DNA of 64,000 bases, taken from positions 32,001 through 96,000 of IMG/VR virus record IMGVR_UViG_3300028844_004840; one strand, 5' to 3'. Below the pieces are notes generated by a model. That model was not told the origin of the DNA. It did no database searches and worked only from the letters and a program-made list of their open reading frames with translations. The DNA comes from a virus (taxonomy: Duplodnaviria; Caudoviricetes). Shown one piece after another: positions 1 to 30,100 of the stretch. The position numbers and the translations under genes were made by a program. Each line of letters opens with the position of its first letter. The stretch's first letter is position 1.

Positions 1-1
1 A

Positions 2-91
2 GAAGACGCCGAACGCGTCAACAGCGCAGTGGCGTTGATACATCAATTTCTAGAAGAAGCCAGAGACAATGGCTTGTTGGAGGTATTCTGA
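2..91 (+). CDS. 3' end of a hypothetical protein (partial)
   Basis: Open frame EDAERV...GLLEVF ending at TGA 89-91, overlapping the next ATG (TGATG). Confidence 0.55.
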   Translation, partial: EDAERVNSAVALIHQFLEEARDNGLLEVF

Positions 92-423
92 TGCATTTCT
101 GTGATAATTGGGTTATTATAAAAATCAACGGAGACGATCCACACTATCGCGTTTTGACTGGAACATCTGGGGGGTTCGGGACGGGAGATAGCTGGCGCAT
201 GAACAGTGGAATTACCGCTGTTCGAGAAGATGCTGACTATTTTTACTTCGCTGGATCATCCGGATCCGAGTATGAGTGCCACAAAGATTCTTATTGCCTA
301 CGAATGAACAACGCCCATATCTGGACACAGATGCAGAAAAAGAACAAAGAGAAGGGTGAAGAAATTTACGAAATGATGCCCGAAGACGTCGACTGGACAG
401 CAGTAGACTGGTTAATAACATGA
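91..423 (+). CDS. conserved phage hypothetical protein
   Basis: DNWVIIKI...GDSWRMNSGI motif typical of a widespread phage family; coupled start. Confidence 0.75.
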   Translation: MHFCDNWVIIKINGDDPHYRVLTGTSGGFGTGDSWRMNSGITAVREDADYFYFAGSSGSEYECHKDSYCLRMNNAHIWTQMQKKNKEKGEEIYEMMPEDVDWTAVDWLIT

Positions 424-487
424 AACACGGTTTATAAAAAATCCAGTTATACCGAGATTGGTTAATTACAAGAAGGATCATCCAAAT

Positions 488-789
488 ATGCCGATGTTTA
501 GAAAAACCCGTTGAAATTGAGGCCGTTCAGCTGACGGCAGACACGGTGCGCGAAGCCTACTAATTTATGCACGGTAGACAGGATATATCAGGACTGACCG
601 CTGAATATTGGTATTACTACTGCGTTTCCGTTTGCGATACGGGAATGAATGTCACGACCCTAGAAGATGGCCCAGACGCGCGCCAAGCATGTGGCTTCAA
701 TTGGAGATTGGATCATTAAAGGGATCAAGGGAGAGTTCTACCCTTGTAAGCCTGATATTTTCGAAGCCACGTACGAACCCTGTAAATAA
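488..789 (+). pseudogene. degraded phage protein of the KKPVEIEAVQ...[19 protein letters not shown] family
   Basis: SD AGAAGGA then ATG 488. Family motifs are spread over three frames (shifts near 506 and 684), with an in-frame TAA at 561-563. Confidence 0.8.
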
Positions 790-808
790 AAACGTTTAAC
801 ACTATCAT

Positions 809-887
809 GCCCTCACGATGTAATAGGAATAGCATACCGGACTTAAAATCGGGGTTTTGTGGGTTCGAGTCCCACTGGGGGGTACCA
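809..887 (+). tRNA. tRNA-Leu(TAA), short variable arm
   Basis: Anticodon loop CTTAAAA, T arm GTGGG-TTCGAGT-CCCAC, encoded CCA; imperfect acceptor and anticodon stems. Confidence 0.8.
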
Positions 888-892
888 AACAC

Positions 893-921
893 TTGACATG
901 TACATATTATGCAATTAGTGA
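893..921 (+). promoter_or_regulatory. sigma70-like promoter
   Basis: TTGACA-N17-TAGTGA upstream of the ORF at 951. Confidence 0.5.
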
Positions 922-950
922 TGTATACAGAATTTAAAAGGAGAACCAGC

Positions 951-1172
951 ATGGTAAAACGCGCCGTTCAGTATATTCGGAATAAGTTAACAACTATCGG
1001 GGAACACATCCGCCGAAACAAAGCTGAATTGATTCGTGGATCAGTTCTTGATCCAATTAATCACCCATCGTATTCTACAGACAAAATGCTGCAAGTCTAC
1101 CGCGCGGCTAATCACCGAGACCGTACAATAAAGACTGCAAACGGTAGATACGAAAACGCGGTAAACATTTAG
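951..1172 (+). CDS. hypothetical protein
   Basis: SD AGGAGA before ATG 951 (MVKRAVQ), preferred to the track start at 909. Confidence 0.65.
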   Translation: MVKRAVQYIRNKLTTIGEHIRRNKAELIRGSVLDPINHPSYSTDKMLQVYRAANHRDRTIKTANGRYENAVNI

Positions 1173-1175
1173 TAC

Positions 1176-1270
1176 GGACGGCCATCTGGACAGGCGAACC
1201 AGTCCCGTTTCGAAAGCGGTGAGTACTTGTTAATAGCAAGTATGGGGATCGAGACCTCGGCCTTCCGCCA
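1176..1270 (+). tRNA. tRNA-Ser(CGA), 8/4 fold
   Basis: Acceptor GGACGGCC/GGCCTTCC (8 positions, one mismatch), T stem GGGG/CCTC, T loop ATCGAGA, anticodon loop TTCGAAA, long variable arm, G73, CCA. Confidence 0.9.
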
Positions 1271-1278
1271 AAAATAAC

Positions 1279-1363
1279 GCTTCGGTAGCTTAACGGTAAA
1301 GCTCCTCGCTCATAACGGGTGTTCGAAAGAACTATGTAGGTTCGAATCCTACCCGAAGCACCA
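1279..1363 (+). tRNA. tRNA-CAT (Ile2 or Met) with long variable arm
   Basis: Acceptor GCTTCGG/CCGAAGC, loop CTCATAA, extra hairpin GTTC-GAAA-GAAC, T arm GTAGG-TTCGAAT-CCTAC, A73, CCA. Confidence 0.85.
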
Positions 1364-1364
1364 C

Positions 1365-1459
1365 GGATAATCAACTGGACAGGCGCGCCAGACCCGCTTT
1401 GAAAGCGGTGTGCACGGGTTAACAGCTCGTGCGGGGATCGAGACCTCGATTATCTACCA
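1365..1459 (+). tRNA. tRNA-Ser(TGA), 8/4 fold
   Basis: Acceptor GGATAATC/GATTATCT, T stem GGGG/CCTC, loop TTTGAAA, long variable arm, A73, CCA. Confidence 0.9.
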
Positions 1460-1507
1460 ATTAGCCCTTGCACAATCACGCGTGATGTGCTTAAATGGGC
1501 ACAACAT

Positions 1508-1582
1508 TGCGGAGTAGCCAAGTGGTAAGGCGTCGGGTTTTGATCTCGATATGCGTAGGTTCGAATCCTACCTCCGCAGCCA
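1508..1582 (+). tRNA. tRNA-Gln(TTG)
   Basis: Canonical cloverleaf TGCGGAG/CTCCGCA, loop TTTTGAT, G73, CCA. Confidence 0.95.
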
Positions 1583-1616
1583 GAACACCGATATTTTGGT
1601 AAACTAAGGTCACTGC

Positions 1617-1693
1617 AGGGGTGAAGCTCAATAGGAAGTAGCGTCGGATTCCAAACCCGAAGGCTGTCGGTTCGACTCCGACTACCCTTGCCA
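1617..1693 (+). tRNA. tRNA-Trp(CCA)
   Basis: Acceptor AGGGGTG/TACCCTT, loop TTCCAAA, T arm GTCGG-TTCGACT-CCGAC, CCA. Confidence 0.9.
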
Positions 1694-1711
1694 AATTTAA
1701 GGAGACACGAC

Positions 1712-2035
1712 ATGTCGACCAAGAAAGACAATAAACGCCACGTCGTTCGTCGCGTCCGCCGCGCCTTGAACCTTGCTGAAACACCTATTATGTCTGTGGG
1801 AAATATTCTTATCCGTAGTGGGCATGGAAAAGGCGCAGGACTAAAACAGGTCGACGCTCGTGATAGAATCGACATTTACGATTATAGAAATTTGTTTTAT
1901 TTCGAAGATCTCACTTGTGATGAATGCGATTGCTACAACTGCATGCACGTAGTGGATGCTACAGCGGGCAATGGGTGGTCTTTTGAATCAGAAAATGACA
2001 ACAACCCTAAATTAGGTGAATTAATCGCCGTGTAA
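1712..2035 (+). CDS. hypothetical protein with Cys cluster (CxxCxCxxCxH)
   Basis: SD AAGGAG before ATG 1712; motif CDECDCYNCMH. Confidence 0.6.
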   Translation: MSTKKDNKRHVVRRVRRALNLAETPIMSVGNILIRSGHGKGAGLKQVDARDRIDIYDYRNLFYFEDLTCDECDCYNCMHVVDATAGNGWSFESENDNNPKLGELIAV

Positions 2036-2055
2036 CAGATTAACGCGCATCAAGT

Positions 2056-2151
2056 GGATGGTGAAGCAGACAGGCGTGCTGCACCTGCTTGGAAAGCAGT
2101 GTGTGCCTCGACAAACCGAGGTACGGGGATCAAGACCTCCGCCATCCGCCA
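2056..2151 (+). tRNA. tRNA-Ser(GGA), 8/4 fold
   Basis: Acceptor GGATGGTG/CGCCATCC, T stem GGGG/CCTC, T loop ATCAAGA, loop TTGGAAA, long variable arm, G73, CCA. Confidence 0.9.
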
Positions 2152-2261
2152 CGTATATCGAATAACAGTAAGCATCAAATTTAAACTTAGATGAATCTAT
2201 TTTACATGTTTACATTACAGCCTCATCTCGTTATGAGTACTTTGTAACCCAAAAAAGGAGT

Positions 2262-2645
2262 GTGAATATGGCACCAATTTTATACATCTTAATGCGTACA
2301 GACCTTGCCTCCATGAATTCGGGCAAAGGGATGGCACAAGCCTGCCACGCCGCAAATCAGTTTGCGCACAAATACGCTGGGACGGATTTCCTAGAACAGT
2401 GGGAAGCCGAAACAGGAATGGGATTTGGAACTACAATTGTATTAGCCGTTGAAGATTGGTACGCACTAGCTTATTATACTTCTTATGCGGAAGATGTGGG
2501 TATACCAAGCGGGGTCACTCACGATCCGTCTTACCCGATTCGAGATGGAAAGGTAACGCACACAGTATCTTTAAGTACGTGTGGGTATATTTTCAGCGAA
2601 GACGGTCCTCTGGATATTCTGAGCAAACTAAATCTACACCCGTAA
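2262..2645 (+). CDS. peptidyl-tRNA hydrolase, PTH2 family
   Basis: Signature YILMRTDL..MNSGKGMAQACHA and IVLAV. Confidence 0.85.
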   Translation: MNMAPILYILMRTDLASMNSGKGMAQACHAANQFAHKYAGTDFLEQWEAETGMGFGTTIVLAVEDWYALAYYTSYAEDVGIPSGVTHDPSYPIRDGKVTHTVSLSTCGYIFSEDGPLDILSKLNLHP

Positions 2646-2681
2646 TCACACCAAAAATGGTTAAAAATAAGGAAATACACC

Positions 2682-3194
2682 ATGTTTAGCGATGAAAAAT
2701 TGCAAGAGGTGATAACGTACTTAGCTCTGTGCGATGAAAAAACCAACGTATTTATTGGGTGTGACAGTAAACGCAGCCACGACAAGCAGGGTAACTGGAC
2801 GGCAGCTTACACAAGCGTGGTCGTTATTCACCTGAAAAACGATAGCGGACGGGGATGTGGTGGCGTCGTCTTTTCTGATACCACGCATATGCCTGATTAT
2901 GATCAGAAATTCAACAGACCGTTCATGCGTATGATGAATGAAGCATATAAAGCGACCGAATTGTACCAACAGCTTGAGGATGTGCTGATAAACTTTGACG
3001 TAGAATTACATCTGGACATAAACAAAGACGCGCGACACGGATCTAACGTCGCCCATAACGCTGCTGTTGGGTACGCCACAGGAATAACGGGGCGTCCAGT
3101 GAAGACAAAACCCGACGCGTGGGCTGCAACTCATGTTGCCGACCACGGTGTACACGGTGGCTTCGATGCCAAAGTTACGCGCACGGTGCATTGA
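2682..3194 (+). CDS. RNase H-like protein (YkuK/DUF458 family)
   Basis: Motifs FIGCDS, RMMNEAYKA, ELHLDIN and KPDAWAATHVADH. Confidence 0.8.
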   Translation: MFSDEKLQEVITYLALCDEKTNVFIGCDSKRSHDKQGNWTAAYTSVVVIHLKNDSGRGCGGVVFSDTTHMPDYDQKFNRPFMRMMNEAYKATELYQQLEDVLINFDVELHLDINKDARHGSNVAHNAAVGYATGITGRPVKTKPDAWAATHVADHGVHGGFDAKVTRTVH

Positions 3195-3200
3195 ACCACT

Positions 3201-3228
3201 GGTGGTTACATTTTAGAATGTAACCATC
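3201..3228. repeat. inverted repeat / hairpin before tRNA-Ser(GCT)
   Basis: GGTGGTTACATT-TTAG-AATGTAACCATC. Confidence 0.6.
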
Positions 3229-3239
3229 TACACTTACAC

Positions 3240-3334
3240 GGATGGTGAACCGGACAGGTGCGCCGGAACCGATTGCTAATCGAGTTGTGCCCGTTAATAG
3301 CGGGCATGGGGATCAAGACCTCCGCCATCCGCCA
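3240..3334 (+). tRNA. tRNA-Ser(GCT), 8/4 fold
   Basis: Acceptor GGATGGTG/CGCCATCC, T stem GGGG/CCTC, loop TTGCTAA, long variable arm, G73, CCA. Confidence 0.9.
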
Positions 3335-3370
3335 TGTAGTCTATTTCTTATCGCTGTACACGTGGATGGA

Positions 3371-3385
3371 ATGCACAGACCGCAT
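3371..3385. promoter_or_regulatory. putative LysR-type operator ATGC-N7-GCAT
   Basis: Palindromic T-N11-A box just upstream of TTGTAC..TAAAAT and the DUF1127 genes. Confidence 0.55.
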
Positions 3386-3471
3386 GGCGGGTATTCCTGC
3401 ATAAGGCATTGTACAGACGTAGTGATCGTGTAAAATATCTCCTGTAGAAACAGCACATGGAGATATTTAAT

Positions 3472-3609
3472 ATGTTTAAACGATTCACAAAATCTTTAGT
3501 AGTGGCGCGCACTGTGTCAGCACTATCGTATCTTTCCGACAAACAATTGGATGATATTGGAATAACTCGCGCCGATATCCGTAAACACGCGGAGAAAATC
3601 AATGCTTAA
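3472..3609 (+). CDS. DUF1127 small protein 1 (45 aa)
   Basis: MFKRFTKSLVVARTVSALSYLSDKQLDDIGITRADIRKHAEKINA; DUF1127 core LSD..L.DIG.TR; SD GGAGA. Not in the ORF track. Confidence 0.85.
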   Translation: MFKRFTKSLVVARTVSALSYLSDKQLDDIGITRADIRKHAEKINA

Positions 3610-3733
3610 AGCTTTCGCACGCTGGCGCACAGAAACAACAGTACAACGAGAGCTTTCTGCACTGACAGATCGTGAGTTGGCCGATATAGGTATTTCTCGT
3701 GGAGAAATAATCTATATTTCAAAAATGAAATAG
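3602..3733 (+). CDS. DUF1127 small protein 2 (43 aa)
   Basis: MLKAFARWRTETTVQRELSALTDRELADIGISRGEIIYISKMK; textbook DUF1127 motif; SD GGAGA. Not in the ORF track. Confidence 0.9.
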   Translation: MLKAFARWRTETTVQRELSALTDRELADIGISRGEIIYISKMK

Positions 3734-3735
3734 AC

Positions 3736-3806
3736 ACCCTCACCGCTGGGACGGGCATGGTTTTCTAGGCCGGAGATGGTGAGTTCGATTCTCACTGGGG
3801 GTTCCA
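3736..3806 (+). tRNA. atypical tRNA, probably Arg(TCT), reduced D arm
   Basis: Acceptor ACCCTCA/TGGGGGT, T arm GTGAG-TTCGATT-CTCAC, loop TTTCTAG, mini D arm CCG-CTGGGA-CGG, U73, CCA. Confidence 0.6.
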
Positions 3807-3811
3807 AAAAC

Positions 3812-3886
3812 GCCGATATAGCTGATCTGGCTTAGCAACTGCCTTGTAAGCAGTAGAAGGGGGTTCGAGACCCTCTATCGGCACCA
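3812..3886 (+). tRNA. tRNA-Thr(TGT)
   Basis: Canonical cloverleaf GCCGATA/TATCGGC, loop CTTGTAA, CCA. Confidence 0.95.
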
Positions 3887-3961
3887 AAAACTTGTGTTAT
3901 GCTGCGGGATGTGGTACTGTTTTTAGAACAGTATTTTTGGCCTTTATAATGGAGAAAAGCC

Positions 3962-4261
3962 ATGACCATGCACGTAGTAAGTGACTTGACTATCGGGAAC
4001 TCATCCGTAGTATCTATAAAAGAATCTGGTAAGTATTTTATTGCCGTTACTGGGGAATTTCATGGAGCCACCGCGAGTGTGTTCGTCAATATCGGAGAAA
4101 CCGCCGATTGTATTGTAACGGATTCTTCTTTCACAGAAGACGGTACTAAGGTTATGTGGCTACCCACGTGCACACTATACGTCGGTGTCGCTGGCGAAGG
4201 GGCGGCAACTTCCGTAAATGCATCTATTGCGTTGTTGGAAGAAAACTATGACCGCGTTTAG
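3962..4261 (+). CDS. hypothetical beta-rich protein, possibly virion-associated
   Basis: SD GGAGA; overlaps the start of the following large gene. Confidence 0.65.
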   Translation: MTMHVVSDLTIGNSSVVSIKESGKYFIAVTGEFHGATASVFVNIGETADCIVTDSSFTEDGTKVMWLPTCTLYVGVAGEGAATSVNASIALLEENYDRV

Positions 4262-7200
4262 TAATCCGGTATATCCGGTTGTAAGTTACCCAATATTGGC
4301 GGCTGTATTTGGTTCTGTGACAGGTGGTACACCCATAACAAACCTACCTGATTCTGTTTTAGCCCCCTTTACTACTGCTGTATGGGGGCAGTCAGAACAT
4401 CAGCACATCCTTAATGAGTTTGATGATCGCTTAGACCCAGAATCACTCGTGGATCAAGATCGTGTAACATTTTGGTGGCACGACCGCACGAACAATGACG
4501 CTGCGGGAGTACAGTCCGTTACCCTGAATGACGCAACTGTTGCTACAAGCACAGTTACAGCAGCTATGGTCGCAATGGGAAACACCTTTATGCGTCAAAT
4601 ACCTGATCGCGACATTAAAATTGTGATGCATACACAATCAGGCACATCACCAAGTGAAATAATGGACAACAGTGCTATTCCAGAGACACCTGATGGAGAA
4701 GAGGATAACGCCCCGCGCCGTTGGCAAGACGACTGGGCGCTAAATGCAGCGGCAACGGCTGACGGACATCTAATCGACCACCCGTGGCATTCGTGGTTTG
4801 CCGCACCAGGATCTTACGCCGACGACTACGGTCAAAACATGTTTACATTTATAAAAGGCCGCGACCACGAGACAGGCGCGGAACTTGTTTATTCGGACAC
4901 CGACCCCCTCGATGTGAACGGCATTCAAGTGTCGCGAACACTGCGCGATGTATATACACACGAACCTGCTTGGGTGGTTCCGTCCAGCAGCCATGTATTT
5001 ATCCCAACGGACGACCTGAATAACGCAACCACGTTATCTGCGGGCGGTATAGATTTCTCGCTGCTCAACAAACAACGATCAACAGAAAGCTGGCGCACGG
5101 TTATTCGAAACGAAGCGCTGTCTGCGCATTTCTCGAATGAGGTACCACATCTTAACGGATACGCCAACGGTGAAGACCAAGGAGGCGAGTGGCGCGACCA
5201 AGCACACCCTACGGGGATAATCGATGCAGGAATTAACCGCATGGCACGCCAGATCGCGCATACGATTATGCGTGGGGCGGATGTTACCTCATGGGATGTT
5301 CCATCAATCACAGACGCAGAATGGCAAGATGACGGTTCCTATATGGAAATGTGGTCTAGTGCTGGTCCCGTAACAAGCGCACGAGCTGCTAAGGCTGGGG
5401 AGTTTCTAGCCTCACTAGGTGTGGCCCAAGTTGAAGCGATGAACGACGCCGTTAAAGACGGTCGTGTCCACACGGGGCACCGCGTAGCCAACTTTGAAAG
5501 CGCGGCTGACTGGTCCGCTCGAACAGGTATTTCACTACCCAATATTGAAGCAGATGTACATATTGAAGGTGTGGACTTCACAGGGCTGAATATTCGTATT
5601 GAGGGGGATAATACCGTCACATTTACTGATTGTCTTTTCAATCACAGTGATGGCCCTAATCTTCTCGACGTATTCAAAAACGCTACTGCTATCGCTGAGT
5701 ATTGCACATTCTCGTGTGATGGGGACGGAACAGGCCCCGGTACTCTGGCGCGACGTAGATATGAAGCAGACGGCACGGGCCATTTCGCAACGATACTTTG
5801 CCGTGCAGAAGGGTATCCGAGCGATTCCATTAAGCCGACTGATAGCGATATTGCGCTGTTTAACTACTGCGACACGCCTCTAAACAGCACGGTCAACCCT
5901 ATCGTTTACGTGTCTGGAACGTATGACGTTGGTGTTAAAGTAACTGCAGATAATATTCGCAATCCTTTCGTTTGGGTAAACACCGTTACGGGAAACACAG
6001 ATGCACCAGACTTTAGCGCATCTACAGGAACCACCATCAATGGTTGGGAGGCAACCAACATCCATGCGGATAACATGACGCTCGTAAATGGCGCTAATGC
6101 TATCATCTTCGGTAACGTCTTAAACATGGACCCTAACCGCCGACAGTTTCCGCGCGACAATCCAAACACGAGCAATTTCGTCATCGGGCCTAACGCGAAC
6201 CTATGGAGCGAAGGGGTAAACGCGCCGAACGCCATAATTGCAGGAAACCTATGCCTGCGTGATCCGGACGAAATTGGTGGTCAGCCAATGGCAGGCTTTA
6301 ACGGAGCGTCGTACCTATTGAACCGCATTGAAAGCTTCTCACATGAAGGTGTCAGATATGTTCGTGACATGACTGCGGACCAATCCGCCACATTTGAGGG
6401 CAATATAGACCCAACCACTGGGCAGCCTATCGTACTGCCTACAGGCGGTGTGGACGGTGTTGTGGATCGTACTTTGCTGGAGCCTGTATTGGTTCACGGA
6501 CGTACAGCTACCTCTCGCGCGCAACGCAACAGCGCAGCCGTGGTGCTTGATCATTGGACTGATGTTATGGGCGTTGAGATTGATGGTCAGCCAGCACACC
6601 GTGCGGAGATTCAGTCGAATGGTCGTGTGCGTGTCTATCCTAATTCGGGCGCGTTCACTAACACCTCGCTAATCTCATTTGCAGGTGGGGGTTCATCAGG
6701 CTTTGTGGATCACAACGCGGACGCCTTCGCGGGTTTGTGGGATGATTTCCCAATTGTGGACGTAGGTTTGGGGGATCTTGCAGGTGTTCCGTTGAGTGTT
6801 CTTCCTGACCCTGCAATTTTGGAAAGCACCATTGTGGGCGCAGCGTCGTTCAGCACGACAATTGATGGCCCTCTTTTCTACGATACAGCCAGAATTCCAG
6901 CTAACACGTTCGAGCTTACCGCGCTGTTCAGAGGCTCTGTGTCCACTGAACAAGGAGGCACAGCCCGTCTTTTAAACATTAGCGGATCGCAAATGAGTCT
7001 TGAAGCGCTGTCTAATGGTAATCTGAGATTATCGCTTCGTGATGGGGCTAACGTCAAGGTTGTAGATCTTGTGACGGCAGATCAGGGGTATACTAAAGGT
7101 GTCGTATTTGAAGTCATCATCAGTGTTGATATGGCCAACGGATACGCACGTATGTGGCTCGACGGCACACAAGTGCTTGACGCGACATTTGCAGCAACAG

Positions 7201-7585: not shown

Positions 7586-9229
7586 ATGAATGCACAAGTA
7601 CCCAACCCCGAAGCTAGATCAATTCTATCTATACCATTCCGCGCAGCCCTTTCAGTGCACCCAGATTACACATACTGGGCACCGCACTGGGAGACAATTC
7701 GTGACGCGGAAATAGGTGAAGTTGAAGTAAAGCGCAAGGCAGATAAGTACCTTCCTAAGCTGTCTAGTCAAGACGCCAGCGAATATCAATCATACCTGCG
7801 CCGAGCCGTGTTTTTCAACATGACCTCACGCACGCTTAACTCTTTATATGGGACTGTGTTCCGCCGCGCCCCTAAAGTTTCAGGGCTACAGGCGAAAACG
7901 CTGGAAGCAGCAAAATCCATAACCAAAGATGGTACAAGCCTTCATTTGATGGCAAAAACTACTGTTAAAGAAGTTCTAGCCGTTGGACGCTATGGTCTGA
8001 TGGTCGACGCCGAGCAGGACGGGCGTGGAGGAGCACACGTGGCGTGCTACACCGCAGAGAACATCATCGATTGGGATATGGCAGAAGTTGGAGGCAAGTG
8101 GCAACTTGTGCGTGTTGTGCTGCGTGAAATATTTTACGACAGAGATGAGGCGTGGGGACCGTACCAGTACAAGGCACGTTTTCGTGTACTAGTTCTAGAT
8201 GAATCTACAGGCAGTCCGGTATACAAGCAATTTGTGTTTATCAATGAAATTGGAACAAATGTTCCTGACGTCGACGCGCTTGACGGTGCCACAGAAATTG
8301 TACCAAAAGTGCGCGGGGCGGAGTTGGATTATATTCCGTTTATAATCGTAGGACCGTTTACAAACCATCCTGATGTGCAAAAGCCGCCCATGCTCGATAT
8401 TGTAACATTAAATTATTCTCACTATCTATCTTACGCGGACATGGAATCCGCACGTTTTTTGACGGCGTCACCTGTTTACAAGGTCAATCTAACGAACGCA
8501 GATTCTGCACCAGATTTTAAAGTTGGACCCAATGTTGTGTGGCAATTTGGTCCGGGCGAAGATGGGGGAATTATCGAGTTCACGGGACACGGTTTACGCT
8601 TCTTAGAAAATGCCATGAAAGACAAAGAGGCACAAATTTCTGCCATTGGTGGACGCCTGATGCCAGGCGCATCGAGAGGTGCGGCGGAGAGCGATAACGC
8701 ATTAGCGCTGAAAGAGCAGAACGAACAAACGATGTTACTGAATCTCGCTGATACTGTCGATGAAGCCACTACAAAAATACTCCGTTGGTGGGCTGACTGG
8801 AACAACGTTAGTAAGGATGCTGTAGAGAAAATTGTTTTTGAAATAAATAGAGATTTCTTGATCAGTGATGGAGGCGCACGCGAGTTTCGCGCAATTCAAC
8901 AAATGTACGAAGCTGGTATCATCCCAGTCGATGTTGTGTATTCGTACCTGCGTAAGAATGACGTAATTCCGGAATGGATGTCCGAGGAAGAATTTGCTAG
9001 CAGATTGAACGATAGTAAGCAGTTCCCCAATATGGTCGACGTACTTGCGCGTATGAAGAATTTCCCCGATGCGAATGCTTTTCATGAATTTGAAATGCAG
9101 AAAAAAATGATGAACAACGCTGAAACAGTCGCGCCAGGACCAAACGATCCCGATAATCCGCCAGTACAGCCTGAACAGGTTAGAGGCGGGCGCGCATCAG
9201 AATCCTCTGGAAATGCAAAAATACAATAA
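7586..9229 (+). CDS. portal protein (DUF4055 type)
   Basis: YQSYLRRAVFFN and IPFIIVG..N.P....PPMLDI motifs; position ahead of the head genes. Confidence 0.9.
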   Translation: MNAQVPNPEARSILSIPFRAALSVHPDYTYWAPHWETIRDAEIGEVEVKRKADKYLPKLSSQDASEYQSYLRRAVFFNMTSRTLNSLYGTVFRRAPKVSGLQAKTLEAAKSITKDGTSLHLMAKTTVKEVLAVGRYGLMVDAEQDGRGGAHVACYTAENIIDWDMAEVGGKWQLVRVVLREIFYDRDEAWGPYQYKARFRVLVLDESTGSPVYKQFVFINEIGTNVPDVDALDGATEIVPKVRGAELDYIPFIIVGPFTNHPDVQKPPMLDIVTLNYSHYLSYADMESARFLTASPVYKVNLTNADSAPDFKVGPNVVWQFGPGEDGGIIEFTGHGLRFLENAMKDKEAQISAIGGRLMPGASRGAAESDNALALKEQNEQTMLLNLADTVDEATTKILRWWADWNNVSKDAVEKIVFEINRDFLISDGGAREFRAIQQMYEAGIIPVDVVYSYLRKNDVIPEWMSEEEFASRLNDSKQFPNMVDVLARMKNFPDANAFHEFEMQKKMMNNAETVAPGPNDPDNPPVQPEQVRGGRASESSGNAKIQ

Positions 9230-27105: not shown

Positions 27106-30100
27106 ATGGAATCCAATGAACTCCGCCTGATTATCAACGCTGCCGCTGCGAAAACTGGCGGCAAGCAATTTGTTGCGGCTATACGACAAGTACAGCAATC
27201 AGTAATGGATCTTGATCGAGATTCTGCGGGATCGTTCACCAAACTAAAAGCCGAAGCTAAAGCGGCAGGAACTGCAGCACGCGCAGCGGGTAAGGAAATC
27301 GGTGCGGCAGGTAAATCCGCCAAAGCAGGCTCGGATGAAGCTGTCGCAGGCCTTTCAAAACAAACCACTGCAGCACAACGCGCCGCCGCCGCGCAGGCCC
27401 AATTCACTGCATCTATGGGCGCAGCACAGCTTGCGTCTGAACGATTACGTGCGCGATTACTCCGTTCGGGAGACGCTGCGGGGGCTGAATTAGTTACAGC
27501 GGCGTACGATAAGTTAAAAGTGTCTACAACAGGTCTGGCAGGGAACACAGAACGTGCTCGCGCTTCGCTGGCGACGTTCAGAGGCACGCTTACGCAGATA
27601 CAAGTAAAAGCGCTAGAAACCGCCAATAGCTTTGGGCGCACATCCGCACAGGCGCAGGCACTAACGGGCGCTGTTGGTCGTGTATCCGGTGCAAGTAATA
27701 ACGCTGCAGGCGGTATCCGCAATGCAGGCGGAGCTGCGCGACAAGCATCCCGCGATTTCCAAACAGCGGCTGGAAGCATGCGTGGATTTGAAAACGCACT
27801 GAACGGCACATTTCAAGCGTCATCACTACTGCGAAATGCTTTCGGAGCGATCACCATCGGCGCATTCACCTCTAGTGTATTTCAAGCTGGCGACGCCCTT
27901 GAGCAATTTAAAACTACGATGGAAGTGGCGAGCGGATCCGTTGCTGCCGCAAGCAGCGACCTAGAGTTTATTGATGGAATGGCAAGCCGTCTCGGTACAA
28001 ACCTTGGCGCGTCCCGCGATGCGTTCTCAAAGTTCGCCGTTTCGGCACAAATTGCAGGCGTTGAAACTGGCCAAACCCGTGAAATATTCGAATCCGTATC
28101 GACCGCCATGGCTGTTCTTGGTAAAGGTACTGAGGATCAGCGTCTAGCTTTCTTAGCCCTAGAGCAAATGATGTCAAAAGGGGTGATCTCCGCCGAAGAG
28201 CTGCGTCGTCAGCTCGGTGAACGCTTACCTGGCGCCGTATCTATCATGGCGAATGCCCTAGGCGTGGGCGTAGGTGAATTACAGGATATGCTTAAAGCGG
28301 GGGAGCTTGTATCCTCAGAGGTTCTGCCCAAATTCGCCCGTGAATTAGATAAGGTTGTCGGATCGCAGTTGGAGCGTACGTTCAACCGAGCCGGATCCAA
28401 CTTAGGCCGTCTACAAGTTGAATTTGCTAAATTGCTGGAAGTAGTGTCGAGTAGCGGATTCTTAGATGAATTATCCTCACAATTTAAAGACCTAACAACA
28501 CTGTTGCGCTCATCTGAGGCAGAGGAAGTCGCCCGCCGCATCGGTCAAGGGATGGCAGATATGGCACGCATGGTCGGAGACGCCGCCCAGTTTATCGTGC
28601 AACATTTAGATACCATCGCCACTGTAGCTAAAACCGTGTTCGGGGGTATCCTTGTACGTCAAATTGGCTTAGCAATTACCGCAATTACCGCGATGGGATC
28701 AGCCTCGAAGGTTTCGGTAGCCGCACACCTATTATTTGGACGCTCCGCCGCTGCTGTCGGAACGCAAATGGCCACTACTACAGGTAAACTGACTGCAGGG
28801 GCAGCAGCTACTACATTGTTTGGCAGCGCATCCGCAGGCGCGGCAGGTAAAGTTAGACTTCTAGGTGCAGGTATGGGACTCCTGCGCGGATCTTTCGCGT
28901 TTCTAACTGGACCAGTCGGGCTGGCACTTACCGCCTTAACGCTTCTTCCTGCCATTTTCAGTGATGCAGGTAATGCTGCTGAAAATACATCCGCGCAGTA
29001 TGAAAAAGCTATGCAGCGCATGAATACAGCAAGCTTCGATTTCTTGGATACTGCTCGTCAGATCGGAGAGCTTACACCGTTTGATCGATTAAATCAAACC
29101 CTTGGCGCGCTATCCGAAGGACGCGTTATAATTGAGGAGCTGGCTTCTTCCGGAACGTTTTTGACTAATCTCGCTGACAATATGCGCGATCTAACAGAAG
29201 CAACGCAGGGAACGGGAGCGGCTGCAGAGGTTTCTGGATTAACAACGCTTGTAGAAGACCTTCTGGCTATGAACCTGACTGCCCCAGAAGCGGCTGACAA
29301 GGTTAATGAAATCTCGGATGCGATGAACGCGTTGAACGGTTCTGGAGAATTGGGGGACAACTTTTCCGAGCTGAAAACATTGGGCGACACCTTGAATCCG
29401 CTGGGACAGGCCATCCTAACGTTCAGTGGATCAATGAAGGAAGCCGACACAATCGCTGGAGATCTGGGTGGCACACTTTCAGATCTCAATGTAAAACAGG
29501 GAGAGCTTTTTGCGGCGCAAGAACTGCTGATCACCGGGCAGGGCAATTTAAATAACATGTCAGCCGAGACAGCCGCTGCATTTGATGGGCTGGCGAACGG
29601 TCCTATCGTTGGTTTAGTCAGCCAAATGAGCCAGCTTGAACAGCGTATGCAGCGTATTTCTAACTTAAATGGTTCTGGTGTACGCGTAAATGAACTTGTA
29701 ACTAATTTACAACTACTGAGACTGACGTTCGACGGCACGCAAGAATCCATCGATGAGTATGCAGCCCACTTGGAAGAGGCACGCGCTAAGGCACAGCAAG
29801 TCGCTGATAATGATTCGCTTTCTCGCCGTCTCAGAGAAGATGCAGCAGCCGCCTTAGAGGCAATCAGTGAAGCGGAAGCGTACGTAAATTCCTTATTGAA
29901 TCTACAGGCGCAGGGAGATACAACTGCTGCGGCGCAGGAGAATTTACGCAATAACGTAAACGGAGCGAGCGGTGCCATGAGCAACGCCTCCGCAGTCGCA
30001 TACGAATATGCAGGGGCGCTTGCGGTGGTTGCGTCGGCGCAGGCAAACGTTTCAGACATTTCAACTGATTTCCGAGAACAAAACCGTCTTCGCGTAGAAT

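Follow-up and report, generated by a model that had tools for sequence, protein, structure and literature searches.

A complete set of 8/4 serine tRNA genes in a phage related to roseobacter phages

Introduction

The genome of the marine phage described here carries four genes that probably encode functional serine tRNAs. They would belong to a lineage borne by phages and built on an 8/4 cloverleaf, be charged by the host and sustain translation, and their shape would be inherited within the lineage and not recently derived from a host. Judging from the sequence comparisons and predicted folds presented below, we place the probability of this reading at about 0.8. The four genes are real and conserved tRNA genes, and covariation across the family speaks for the 8/4 pairing.

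The window analyzed is a stretch of 64,000 nucleotides that corresponds to bases 32001–96000 of a complete phage genome, a 139,562-bp virus record (139.6 kb) with terminal repeats. The relatives of this phage are roseobacter phages such as DSS3P8, MD18, RcXuper, and RpAliso. Its portal protein shares 56–60% identity with those of DSS3P8, vB_RpoS-V10, RcXuper, MD18, DSS3_MAL1, and RpAliso, and the hosts of the nearest cultured relatives belong to Ruegeria, Rhodobacter, and Phaeobacter; a megablast comparison of window positions 1–6000 with cultured phages gave no match. The genome has a GC content of 47.6% and uses all six serine codons, each of which accounts for 13–22% of the serine codons. 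It contains a tRNA island of at least 20 genes. Over the whole genome ARAGORN with default settings predicts 20 canonical tRNAs, none of them for serine, and a canonical tRNA-Ser was found neither by ARAGORN nor by Rfam.

The Serine tRNA Genes

The four genes, all located on the plus strand, encode tRNA-Ser(CGA) (1176..1270, 95 nt), tRNA-Ser(UGA) (1365..1459, 95 nt), tRNA-Ser(GGA) (2056..2151, 96 nt), and tRNA-Ser(GCU) (3240..3334, 95 nt). Each of them was assigned the 8/4 fold on the basis of its sequence, the consensus fold, the minimum free energy (MFE) fold and the prediction of ARAGORN at the relaxed setting -ps80; the ends, read from the sequence, confirm the locations given in the preliminary description. 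tRNA-Ser(UGA) begins 2 nt after a tRNA(CAU) (1279–1363), and genes for PTH2 and an RNase H-like protein lie directly upstream of tRNA-Ser(GCU), an order that is the same in RcXuper, RpAliso, and DSS3P8.

Alignment and folding of the copies bear out the features that had been described as common to them, namely an 8-bp acceptor stem, a 4-bp T stem GGGG/CCUC, a D loop starting with ACAGG, a T loop AUCRAGA without T54 and a long variable arm. The 5′ end GGA and the 3′ CCA are also common to the four copies. The variable-arm stems comprise 7–8 bp (8 bp in the GGA copy), three copies carry discriminator G and the UGA copy carries A, and the GGA and GCU copies do not differ in their acceptor and T arms. 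A 15-base T-arm motif occurs four times in the window vs. 0 expected (100 shuffles). The anticodon loops UUCGAAA, UUUGAAA, UUGGAAA, and UUGCUAA present the anticodons CGA, UGA, GGA, and GCU, respectively; under standard wobble rules these would cover UCN and AGY, in agreement with the earlier proposal that the set reads all six serine codons.

The acceptor stem of tRNA-Ser(CGA), GGACGGCC/GGCCUUCC, contains a single C.U mismatch, at pair 4, and is accompanied by discriminator G and an encoded CCA, while tRNA-Ser(UGA) has a G1.U72 pair, discriminator A and an encoded CCA. Either the mismatch of the CGA copy or the A73/G1.U72 combination of the UGA copy could weaken charging.

On the covariance model R1 tRNA-Ser(CGA) scores 105.6 bits (self match). 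No 8/4 tRNAs beyond the four were found in the phage, the next model matches being canonical tRNAs with at most 27.9 bits. A scan of positions 1–4400 for promoters and terminators returned 10 and 5 sites, respectively, no better than the 7.2 and 4.0 obtained in shuffles. A search for RNA runs covering positions 1100–3400 found none; full coverage came only from two runs of a single marine-metagenome sample, which may be the source.

Evidence for the 8/4 Fold

Applied to the four copies, RNAalifold gives an 8/4 cloverleaf in which the eighth acceptor pair is C-G in two copies and G-C in the other two, and the same cloverleaf is the minimum-energy structure of each copy folded alone (z-scores −1.4, −3.3, −4.2, and −2.5). 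The architecture is of type II with an AA or AU linker, a 4-bp D stem, a 4-bp T stem and a 7-nt T loop, and the acceptor stems contain seven or eight standard pairs per copy when G.U is counted as a pair. As to the unpaired position reported at the top of the anticodon stem, the odd base is present, but the consensus and MFE folds describe it better as a one-base bulge inside a 6-bp stem.

Pair 49:65 of a 7/5 fold cannot form in the GGA copy (C.C) or in the GCU copy (U.C). For the UGA copy the ARAGORN -ps80 drawing is a 7/5 structure with a 3-nt linker, but the covariation seen in the family favors 8/4 here as well. The family test set consisted of 60 of the 144 model matches (80 loci in other viral contigs), which represent 50 distinct sequences and were chosen only by the T-arm motif and a length of at least 80 nt, not by the eighth pair. 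This pair forms in 49 of the 50 distinct relatives (GC 20, UA 16, AU 9, CG 3, UG 1), whereas the alternative 49:65 is possible in only 21 since base 49 is always U. Similarly, among 17 parsed copies from cultured phages the eighth pair is present in 16 and the 7/5 alternative in two. Over 125 distinct matches 94.9% of cells pair, compared with 63.7% in shuffles and 44–51% with slid partners, and compensatory change occurs in every helix across the family.

It is very improbable that these elements are decayed or non-translational tRNA-like sequences, or else ordinary 7/5 tRNAs with a 3-nt linker. The rejection of the four copies by default gene finders, the ARAGORN drawing of the UGA copy and the inactivity of some allo-tRNAs (Mukai et al., 2017; PMC5389517) point in that direction; however, the compensatory changes argue against decay, neither the anticodon loops nor the CCA end is damaged, each of the four serine anticodon classes persists, and the 7/5 pair is impossible in two of the copies and in most of the relatives.

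Gene Prediction and Annotation

As the preliminary description had anticipated, standard finders miss these genes: ARAGORN with default settings detects none of the four, and the Rfam tRNA and tRNA-Sec models match none of them either at the gathering score or at E ≤ 10. When relaxed to -ps80 ARAGORN recovers all four, with ends and anticodons identical to the manual reading, along with many overlapping and minus-strand predictions (also at -ps60) that were treated as false. A “tRNA-Ser(gga)” at 673–755, predicted by relaxed ARAGORN, was likewise treated as false and is absent from the Rfam scan of the whole window at the gathering score.

The same blind spot affects public records. The GenBank records of six cultured alphaproteobacterial phages contain 20 strong 8/4 matches, and not one of these bears a tRNA annotation; the DSS3Φ8 paper, which used tRNAscan-SE, describes 24 tRNAs serving 14 amino acids. 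Serine tRNA counts and codon-compensation analyses of such phages are wrong. The 12 canonical tRNA-Ser genes of three bacteria (G002, G082, and G046) all score 22.9–30.9 bits on the 8/4 model vs. 39–106 for the family, and with the class at 39 bits or more and canonical tRNA-Ser at 31 or less a small covariance model such as R1 cleanly splits the two.

Distribution in Phages and Bacteria

Among cultured phages, DSS3P8 and MD18 carry 8/4 genes for the complete set (CGA, UGA, GGA, and GCU) and RcXuper, RpAliso, and the Caulobacter phages CcrPW and CcrRogue carry those for CGA, GGA, and GCU. The anticodons of the 50 distinct relatives are CGA (21), UGA (11), GCU (10), and GGA (7), one sequence being misparsed; 46 of these relatives start with GGA, 49 have an AA linker, and 45 have G, four U and one A as discriminator. 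The paralogues within the window share 70–81% identity with the anticodon loop masked, which is higher than their identity to same-anticodon genes of other genomes.

The family occurs in at least 118 stretches of viral contigs and is far commoner there than in bacterial genomes, where the 8/4 motif was found at 45 loci among 185,579 species genomes. Dense tRNA arrays (at least 10 ARAGORN tRNAs in 8 kb), which are typical of mobile arrays and not of housekeeping genes, make up 22 of these 45 loci. In the likely host order, which contains a Paracoccus MAG, strong 8/4 matches were obtained in two of 151 genomes by a search of 27 candidates per genome under strict filters that weak 8/4 variants could escape, and both of these genomes also have four canonical 90-nt tRNA-Ser genes. 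The 8/4 genes of G002, G082, and G046 are extra clustered copies in genomes that have four dispersed canonical tRNA-Ser genes too, and in G002 and G082 they form a second tandem set. The bacterial 8/4 modules are neighbored by metabolic genes, a phage lysozyme and an RTX/CAP protein; no toxin or defence genes were found among the 10 flanking proteins scanned.

These data bear on the possibility of simple capture, according to which the serine tRNAs of the host are themselves 8/4 and were copied by the phage. A few bacteria do hold the motif, including the two strong matches in the likely host order; however, the 8/4 genes of the three bacteria mentioned above are only additional to canonical ones, the bacterial loci include many tRNA arrays, and viral contigs contain the family far more often than bacterial genomes do. 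The check for 8/4 tRNA-Ser in the host, made on the likely host order, was mostly negative at two of 151 genomes, with canonical sets present. Recent capture from the host is unlikely because that order normally has canonical tRNA-Ser, and simple capture, to which we give very little credence, is largely refuted. Its removal by the negative host check does not, however, show escape from a defence.

Proposed Role and Alternative Explanations

In the reading that we prefer, the 8-bp acceptor stem would stack on the 4-bp T stem to give a 12-bp arm of the same length as in a normal 7/5 tRNA, and with this arm kept the molecules would be accepted by EF-Tu and the ribosome. Charging would be performed by the seryl-tRNA synthetase (SerRS) of the host, which may recognize the long variable arm, the G1-G2-A3 acceptor end and the discriminator and would not read the anticodon. 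Phage translation would be sustained by the four tRNAs in concert with roughly 25 further phage tRNAs, a CCA-adding enzyme and the PTH2 peptidyl-tRNA hydrolase. The 8/4 shape, along with the 2-nt linker, the 4-bp D stem, the 6-bp anticodon stem with its bulge, the long variable arm and the A that replaces T54, would be an inherited trait of a mobile tRNA lineage common to related alphaproteobacterial phages, and the set may be renewed within each phage by duplication and anticodon change. Other members of this class, 8/4 and 9/3 allo-tRNAs with serine identity, are translation-competent in Escherichia coli (Mukai et al., 2017; PMC5389517).

Codon compensation leaves unexplained that the 8/4 shape is confined to serine, the other 20 tRNAs found by default ARAGORN fitting the standard cloverleaf, as well as the presence of three serine anticodons for one four-codon box where threonine and proline have one each. 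This raises the question why one amino acid family alone retains an alternative architecture.

The phage also encodes a 259-aa class-II synthetase-like protein (G000:C1:114387-115166, minus strand) that matches PF00587 with 39.4 bits, above the cut-off, and has homologues in Caulobacter, Brevundimonas, and Sinorhizobium jumbo phages, one of them annotated by the depositors as a serine-tRNA synthetase. That this protein is a dedicated charging enzyme for the set, possibly with another amino acid, is nevertheless highly unlikely. Its best family matches are GlyRS (51 bits), HisRS (37.7), and PylRS (28.9), all far under the cut-offs, with SerRS at 18.4; its best PDB match is a GlyRS; and it has neither the coiled-coil arm nor an anticodon-binding domain. 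Moreover, no match to it was found in the 8/4-set carriers DSS3P8, MD18, RcXuper, and RpAliso, and it is heavily disfavored as the charger because it does not co-occur with the 8/4 set. As a candidate phage SerRS it was rejected, being neither SerRS-like nor associated with the set.

Two further explanations attribute the shape to a threat against canonical tRNA-Ser. The first builds on the proposal of the preliminary description that the remodelled acceptor/T arm allows escape from a host defence or toxin acting on canonical tRNA-Ser. The 8/4 arm, the A54 loop and the bulged anticodon stem would hinder attack by a nuclease or toxin, from the host or a competitor, that disables canonical tRNA-Ser, and the phage would bring a complete replacement set; we consider this unlikely. 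The second, which is also unlikely, would see in the 8/4 set a self-contained mobile module for serine decoding that persists when canonical tRNA-Ser is cut, sequestered or uncharged, for example where a nuclease recognizes type-II tRNAs by their 7/5 acceptor/T arm, T54 loop or normal D arm. Such a module might keep all four anticodon classes, be regenerated in each genome by duplication and anticodon switching, and move among phages, tRNA arrays and bacterial chromosomes.

Escape from a defence would suit a set that is both complete and redundant, with three UCN anticodons plus GCU where most other phage families have one or two, and that recurs in full in DSS3P8 and MD18 and, beside four canonical genes, in the bacteria G002 and G082; in addition, the evasion of anticodon nucleases by phage tRNAs is an established idea (PMC10264068, PMC11555353). 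On the other hand, our literature search found no defence directed at tRNA-Ser, and for the one tRNA-cutting defence considered, a bacterial Schlafen, the account consulted names Lys, Ala, Met, and other tRNAs, but not serine, as those whose anticodon arms are cut. The flanks of the bacterial modules are free of toxins among the proteins scanned, and the anticodon loops, with their U33 and A37, show nothing out of the ordinary. To our knowledge, no nuclease directed at tRNA-Ser has been described. The computed evidence speaks neither for nor against the defence-escape idea. As carriers are in culture with their hosts (DSS3Φ8/Ruegeria pomeroyi, MD18/Phaeobacter inhibens, and CcrRogue/Caulobacter), the question is directly testable.

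Comparison with Known tRNA Classes

The T loop of eukaryotic initiator tRNAs has A54 and A60. It shares with the loops described here the AUCG start, the A at the last loop position and the absence of T54, a resemblance that is restricted to the loop and involves an unrelated class. Bacterial tRNA-Sec (8/5) is similar in its 8-bp acceptor stem, long variable arm, 6-bp anticodon stem and charging by SerRS; its branch, however, comprises 13 bp, its anticodon is UCA and its D stem of 6 bp closes a 4-nt loop. An identity as tRNA-Sec was rejected, the branch being of 12 bp here, the anticodons being sense serine anticodons and the Rfam tRNA-Sec model giving no match at E ≤ 10.

Canonical 7/5 tRNA-Ser, represented by the 12 genes of G002, G082, and G046, have in common with the phage genes the same four anticodons, a GGA or GGU 5′ end, a GCCA end and a long variable arm, and differ from them in the 7-bp acceptor stem, the 5-bp T stem with a UUCGAAU loop, the 3-bp D stem with a large D loop and the 5-bp anticodon stem. 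The phage genes were not accepted as canonical type-II tRNA-Ser: RF00005 and default ARAGORN match none of the four, and their T loop is AUCRAGA and not UUCRANY.

The 8/4 and 9/3 allo-tRNAs of Acidobacteria, Clostridia, and Proteobacteria (Mukai et al., 2017, PMC5389517; Krahn et al., 2020, PMC7609411) share with the phage genes a 12-bp branch split 8/4, serine identity elements and acceptor stem, anticodon stem and variable arm longer than canonical. They have mismatched anticodons and have been proposed to act as mis-sense or nonsense suppressors or to belong to toxin-antitoxin or transposon systems, whereas the four phage genes have proper serine anticodons. The literature on allo-tRNA and phage since 2018, to the extent available, deals with genetic-code engineering and does not address the function of phage 8/4 tRNA-Ser.

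The four genes belong to the known (8/4) tRNA-Ser group and do not represent a new fold. As the preliminary description acknowledged, the fold is already published, (8/4) tRNA-Ser having been reported from alphaproteobacterial phage tRNA clusters and also from proteobacteria (Mukai et al., 2017; PMC5389517). Both have an 8-bp acceptor and a 4-bp T stem adding up to a 12-bp arm, a long variable arm and serine anticodons. Of the discriminators that serve SerRS as identity element in that group, G73 or U73, three of the four copies here have G73, the UGA copy having A73. Both occur in tRNA clusters of marine alphaproteobacterial phages, and both were found by manual folding and are missed by gene finders. 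The clusters of Mukai et al. also hold an 8/4 tRNA-His, which is absent here: the tRNA-His of this phage folds as 7/5 and has A73 without G-1. In phages the 8/4 family extends well beyond what the 2017 paper might lead one to expect; its T arm with A54 is conserved, its 6-bp anticodon stem contains a bulge, and it occurs in complete four-anticodon sets.

The Four Serine tRNA Genes and Their Fold

The source record is a 139,562-bp virus genome with direct terminal repeats, rated complete, of which the window represents bases 32001–96000. A tRNA island extends over about 19.5–36 kb of this genome and its end occupies the first 4 kb of the window. Four serine tRNA genes lie there on the plus strand: tRNA-Ser(CGA) at 1176–1270, tRNA-Ser(UGA) at 1365–1459, tRNA-Ser(GGA) at 2056–2151 and tRNA-Ser(GCU) at 3240–3334. 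When aligned, all four share a 5' GGA, a D loop starting with ACAGG, the T arm GGGG-AUCRAGA-CCUC and an encoded CCA, with a 2-nt linker (AA in three genes, AU in one). The 15-base T-arm motif is present in four copies in the 64 kb, with none expected from 100 shuffles. RNAalifold (n = 4) folds the genes into a consensus cloverleaf (acceptor stem 8 bp, D stem 4 bp, T stem 4 bp, long variable arm), in which compensatory change affects 14 of 32 predicted pairs; two genes have C-G and two have G-C as their eighth acceptor pair. Single-sequence minimum-energy folds give the same cloverleaf for each gene (z-scores −1.4, −3.3, −4.2, and −2.5). The GGA and GCU copies have identical acceptor and T arms, and a 7/5 drawing fails for both because the fifth T-stem pair would be C.C (GGA) or U.C (GCU).

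Standard finders miss these genes, as the preliminary description had anticipated. ARAGORN with default settings reports 20 tRNAs in the whole genome, none for serine and none of these four genes, and Rfam detects none at gathering score; between 700 and 4000 they have no match to the Rfam tRNA or tRNA-Sec models even at E ≤ 10. At 80% of the ARAGORN threshold all four are called tRNA-Ser with identical ends and the anticodons CGA, UGA, GGA, and GCU, drawn as 7/5 with an imposed 3-nt linker. The observation of four 8/4 serine tRNAs is real and precisely described.

Neighboring tRNA Genes

The default search also places tRNA-Gln at 1508–1582, tRNA-Trp at 1617–1693, tRNA-Thr at 3812–3886 and a plus-strand tRNA-Met/CAU at 1279–1363 (Rfam, 56.2 bits). 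The latter has Ser(CGA) and Ser(UGA) as its immediate neighbors, the next gene beginning 2 nt past its CCA; its variable region contains a 12-nt hairpin (GUUCGAAAGAAC), the body being otherwise type I with discriminator A. To our knowledge, a tRNA(CAU) with a long variable arm is no standard bacterial type. An irregular tRNA at 809–883 (plus strand; Rfam, 36.8 bits; ARAGORN at relaxed threshold only) has the anticodon UAA, for Leu codons UUA/UUG, yet a short variable loop, and shows the mismatches G1.G72 and a G.G within the anticodon stem. A 71-nt tRNA-Arg(UCU) whose D arm is reduced (3736–3806, plus strand), called only by ARAGORN -ps80, is probably real since a tRNA-Arg(tct) is annotated at the matching place in phage RcXuper and a tRNA-Arg, for which the record gives no anticodon, at a similar position in DSS3P8. 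The phage genome also has a tRNA of canonical appearance beyond the window (29448–29523, plus strand), with the amber suppressor anticodon CUA; ARAGORN labels it "Pyl." Nothing suggests wholesale recoding of TAG, as this codon still terminates 26 of 141 ORFs in a crude ORF call.

Conservation across Phage Contigs

The T-arm motif is present in at least 118 stretches of IMG/VR, the matches listed representing 80 loci. R1, a covariance model derived from the window genes, has 144 matches in these listed loci. Its structure pairs in 94.9% of cells over the 125 distinct matches (63.7% in shuffles, 44–51% with slid partners) and all 28 model pairs show compensatory change. This alignment was fitted to R1, so more weight is given to a count that avoids circularity, in which sequences from the listed loci were selected by the scan motif and a length of at least 80 nt alone (60 rows, 50 distinct). 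Of these 50 sequences, 49 have the eighth acceptor pair (GC 20, UA 16, AU 9, CG 3, UG 1); the alternative 7/5 pair is possible in 21, because the base ahead of the T stem is U in every sequence. The 5' GGA (46/50), discriminator G (45/50), and AA linker (49/50) are likewise conserved, and the anticodons are CGA (21), UGA (11), GCU (10), and GGA (7), with one sequence misparsed.

The anticodon stem departs from the usual pattern. Of the 52 distinct motif rows among the matches listed, no more than 23 have the canonical 27:43 pair; in 42 of them the partner of base 27 lies one base further downstream, and in 47 of 50 rows base 26 is matched with the base after that partner, C-G, G-C, and A-U alternating. 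From this shifted pairing, the anticodon stem is one of 6 bp with a single bulged base on its 3' strand, as single-sequence folds also draw it. The "unpaired top anticodon-stem position" noted previously is thus a family-wide feature, but it is really a bulged base within the longer stem.

T loops starting with AUCG were also seen in some tRNAs for other amino acids (Asp GUC, Tyr GUA, Asn GUU) on other phage contigs, which have possible eighth acceptor pairs too (e.g., L021:1335–1409, L067:5340–5422, and L025:1763–1838, in stretches from those contigs, and others in the same set of hits), so the A54 loop may not be confined to serine tRNAs.

Phage Relatives and Probable Host

The portal protein (7586–9229) is 55.5–59.7% identical to those of six phages (roseobacter DSS3P8, Ruegeria vB_RpoS-V10, Rhodobacter RcXuper, Phaeobacter MD18, DSS3_MAL1, and Ruegeria RpAliso). 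Genes for a PTH2 peptidyl-tRNA hydrolase (2268–2645), an RNase H-like/DUF458 protein (2682–3194), tRNA-Ser and tRNA-Arg(UCU) follow one another in the window as in RcXuper; RpAliso matches up to tRNA-Ser, and in DSS3P8 tRNA-Ser likewise comes after the DUF458 gene, with two small ORFs separating it from tRNA-Arg. Two small DUF1127 genes (3457–3609 and 3602–3733; like the preceding two, on the plus strand) lie between tRNA-Ser and tRNA-Arg in the window. The phage tRNA-His has A73 and lacks G-1, a type that Mukai et al. (2017, PMC5389517) ascribe to one group of alphaproteobacteria. From the portal relatives, the gene order and this tRNA-His we infer a marine alphaproteobacterium as the probable host, with the Rhodobacterales as its most likely order.

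Strong R1 matches occur in DSS3P8 and MD18 (four each, with the anticodons CGA, UGA, GCU, and GGA), RcXuper and RpAliso (three each), CcrPW (three, beside one record-annotated tRNA-Ser(UGA)), and CcrRogue (three, in tandem). The eighth pair forms in 16 of the 17 copies parsed from these 20, the 7/5 alternative being possible in two, and none of the 20 is annotated as a tRNA in the GenBank records of the six cultured phages. The complete 8/4 serine set is thus not peculiar to the window, since DSS3P8 and MD18, out of four cultured relatives among the roseophages that were examined, hold all four anticodons.

Two further translation-related genes of the phage lie outside the window on the minus strand. 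A CCA-adding tRNA nucleotidyltransferase (genome positions 119695–120894; L221:7696–8895 in a stretch of this phage) scores 187.9 bits with NCBIfam PRK13299, under the curated cut-off of 290, and 110.2 bits with Pfam PolyA_pol, over its cut-off; the RpAliso record annotates such an enzyme as well. The other encodes a stand-alone class-II aminoacyl-tRNA-synthetase-like core of 259 aa (114387–115166; L221:2388–3167; PF00587, 39.4 bits) without a tRNA-binding domain, whose best matches (GlyRS, HisRS, PylRS) are all weak. Its homologues (38–44% identity) come from jumbo phages of Caulobacter, Brevundimonas, and Sinorhizobium and from huge uncultured phages, under the depositor labels hypothetical, "aminoacyl-tRNA synthetase," or "serine-tRNA synthetase"; the nearest roseophage relatives gave no match.

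Bacterial Copies, Origin and Possible Role of the Set

A stricter pattern (T arm plus TCCG) was found at 45 loci among 185,579 species genomes (one genome per species); 22 of these loci are dense arrays (at least 10 ARAGORN tRNAs in 8 kb). Many are from Myxococcota or alphaproteobacterial MAGs. Roseibium sp. SCP15 holds one tandem 8/4 cluster (CGA, UGA, GGA, an 83-nt tRNA, GCU; G002:C2:932633–933084, L174) and a genome of the order containing a Paracoccus MAG holds another (G082:C2:160962–161315, L190). In both, this is a complete second set (CGA, UGA, GGA, GCU) beside four dispersed canonical tRNA-Ser genes (90-nt in SCP15). The G082 cluster is flanked by genes for an alcohol dehydrogenase and homogentisate dioxygenase, and phage genes are absent up to a distance of 3 kb. 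An 83-nt tRNA was observed beside or among 8/4 genes at four loci, three Roseibium-titled and one from a Pseudomonadota MAG (ARAGORN; L124 4911–4993, L133 4437–4519, L155 2635–2717, and L159 5921–6003), with the anticodons GCA, GUA, GAA, and GUA by genome; it looks like a single tRNA body in which the middle base of the anticodon varies.

Such copies raise the alternative that the phage simply captured its host's own 8/4 tRNAs. R1 separates the two classes, as canonical tRNA-Ser genes score 22.9–30.9 bits (12/12). Across 151 genomes of the order containing the Paracoccus MAG, which is the likely host order, with 27 candidates per genome scored, 16 have a match at E ≤ 0.001 and only two a strong full-length one: G082 (four in tandem, 53–65 bits) and G046 (two, 61 and 39 bits), each also with four canonical tRNA-Ser genes. 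The other 14 have 77-nt matches of 31–35 bits. Within the scope of this survey of a probable host order, simple capture is unlikely. The window paralogues are 70–81% identical (anticodon loop masked), closer than to same-anticodon genes elsewhere, and D arms or variable arms are similarly shared within DSS3P8, MD18, CcrPW, and CcrRogue; the set therefore seems to be renewed within genomes, either through duplication with a switch of anticodon or through gene conversion.

The proposal that the set evades a defence or toxin acting on canonical tRNA-Ser would suit a complete and redundant serine set, an odd architecture limited to the serine family, and the recurrence of that set as a second one in bacterial chromosomes. 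It is left unsupported: the literature searched contained no tRNA-Ser-directed defence, the tRNAs cut in the anticodon arm according to the bacterial Schlafen preprint are other ones, and the bacterial 8/4 modules have no flanking toxin genes; we regard it as improbable.

What is observed comprises the genes with their fold and conservation, their serine anticodons and their setting in a phage; the most likely working of the set is proposed as follows. Host SerRS would charge the four tRNAs, since this enzyme recognizes the long variable arm, the acceptor end and G73, not the anticodon, and tRNA-Sec of the 8/5, 9/4, and 8/4 types is accepted by it too (see Mukai et al., 2017 and references therein). 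EF-Tu and the ribosome would accept them given the retained 12-bp arm; other 8/4 and 9/3 members insert Ser in Escherichia coli (Mukai et al., 2017). The tRNAs would then supply serine decoding capacity. The phage has a G+C content of 47.6% and uses all six Ser codons (13–22% each); its cultured relatives infect G+C-rich bacteria (64% in R. pomeroyi; DSS3Φ8 paper).

Comparison with Known tRNAs

As stated in the preliminary description, the fold itself is known. (8/4) tRNA-Ser species were described in bacteriophages, proteobacteria, and rumen Clostridia, including tRNA clusters of alphaproteobacterial phages, the first from a marine macroalgal-surface metagenome (Mukai et al., 2017), and the four tRNAs of the window are further members of this group. 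Relative to the accessible text of that study, the wide spread of the family across IMG/VR, the conservation of its A54 T arm, the presence of complete four-anticodon sets in both cultured phages and bacterial chromosomes, the complete absence of these genes from GenBank annotation and the bulged 6-bp anticodon stem may be new. The last of these agrees with the longer anticodon stems of allo-tRNAs reviewed by Krahn et al. (PMC7609411).
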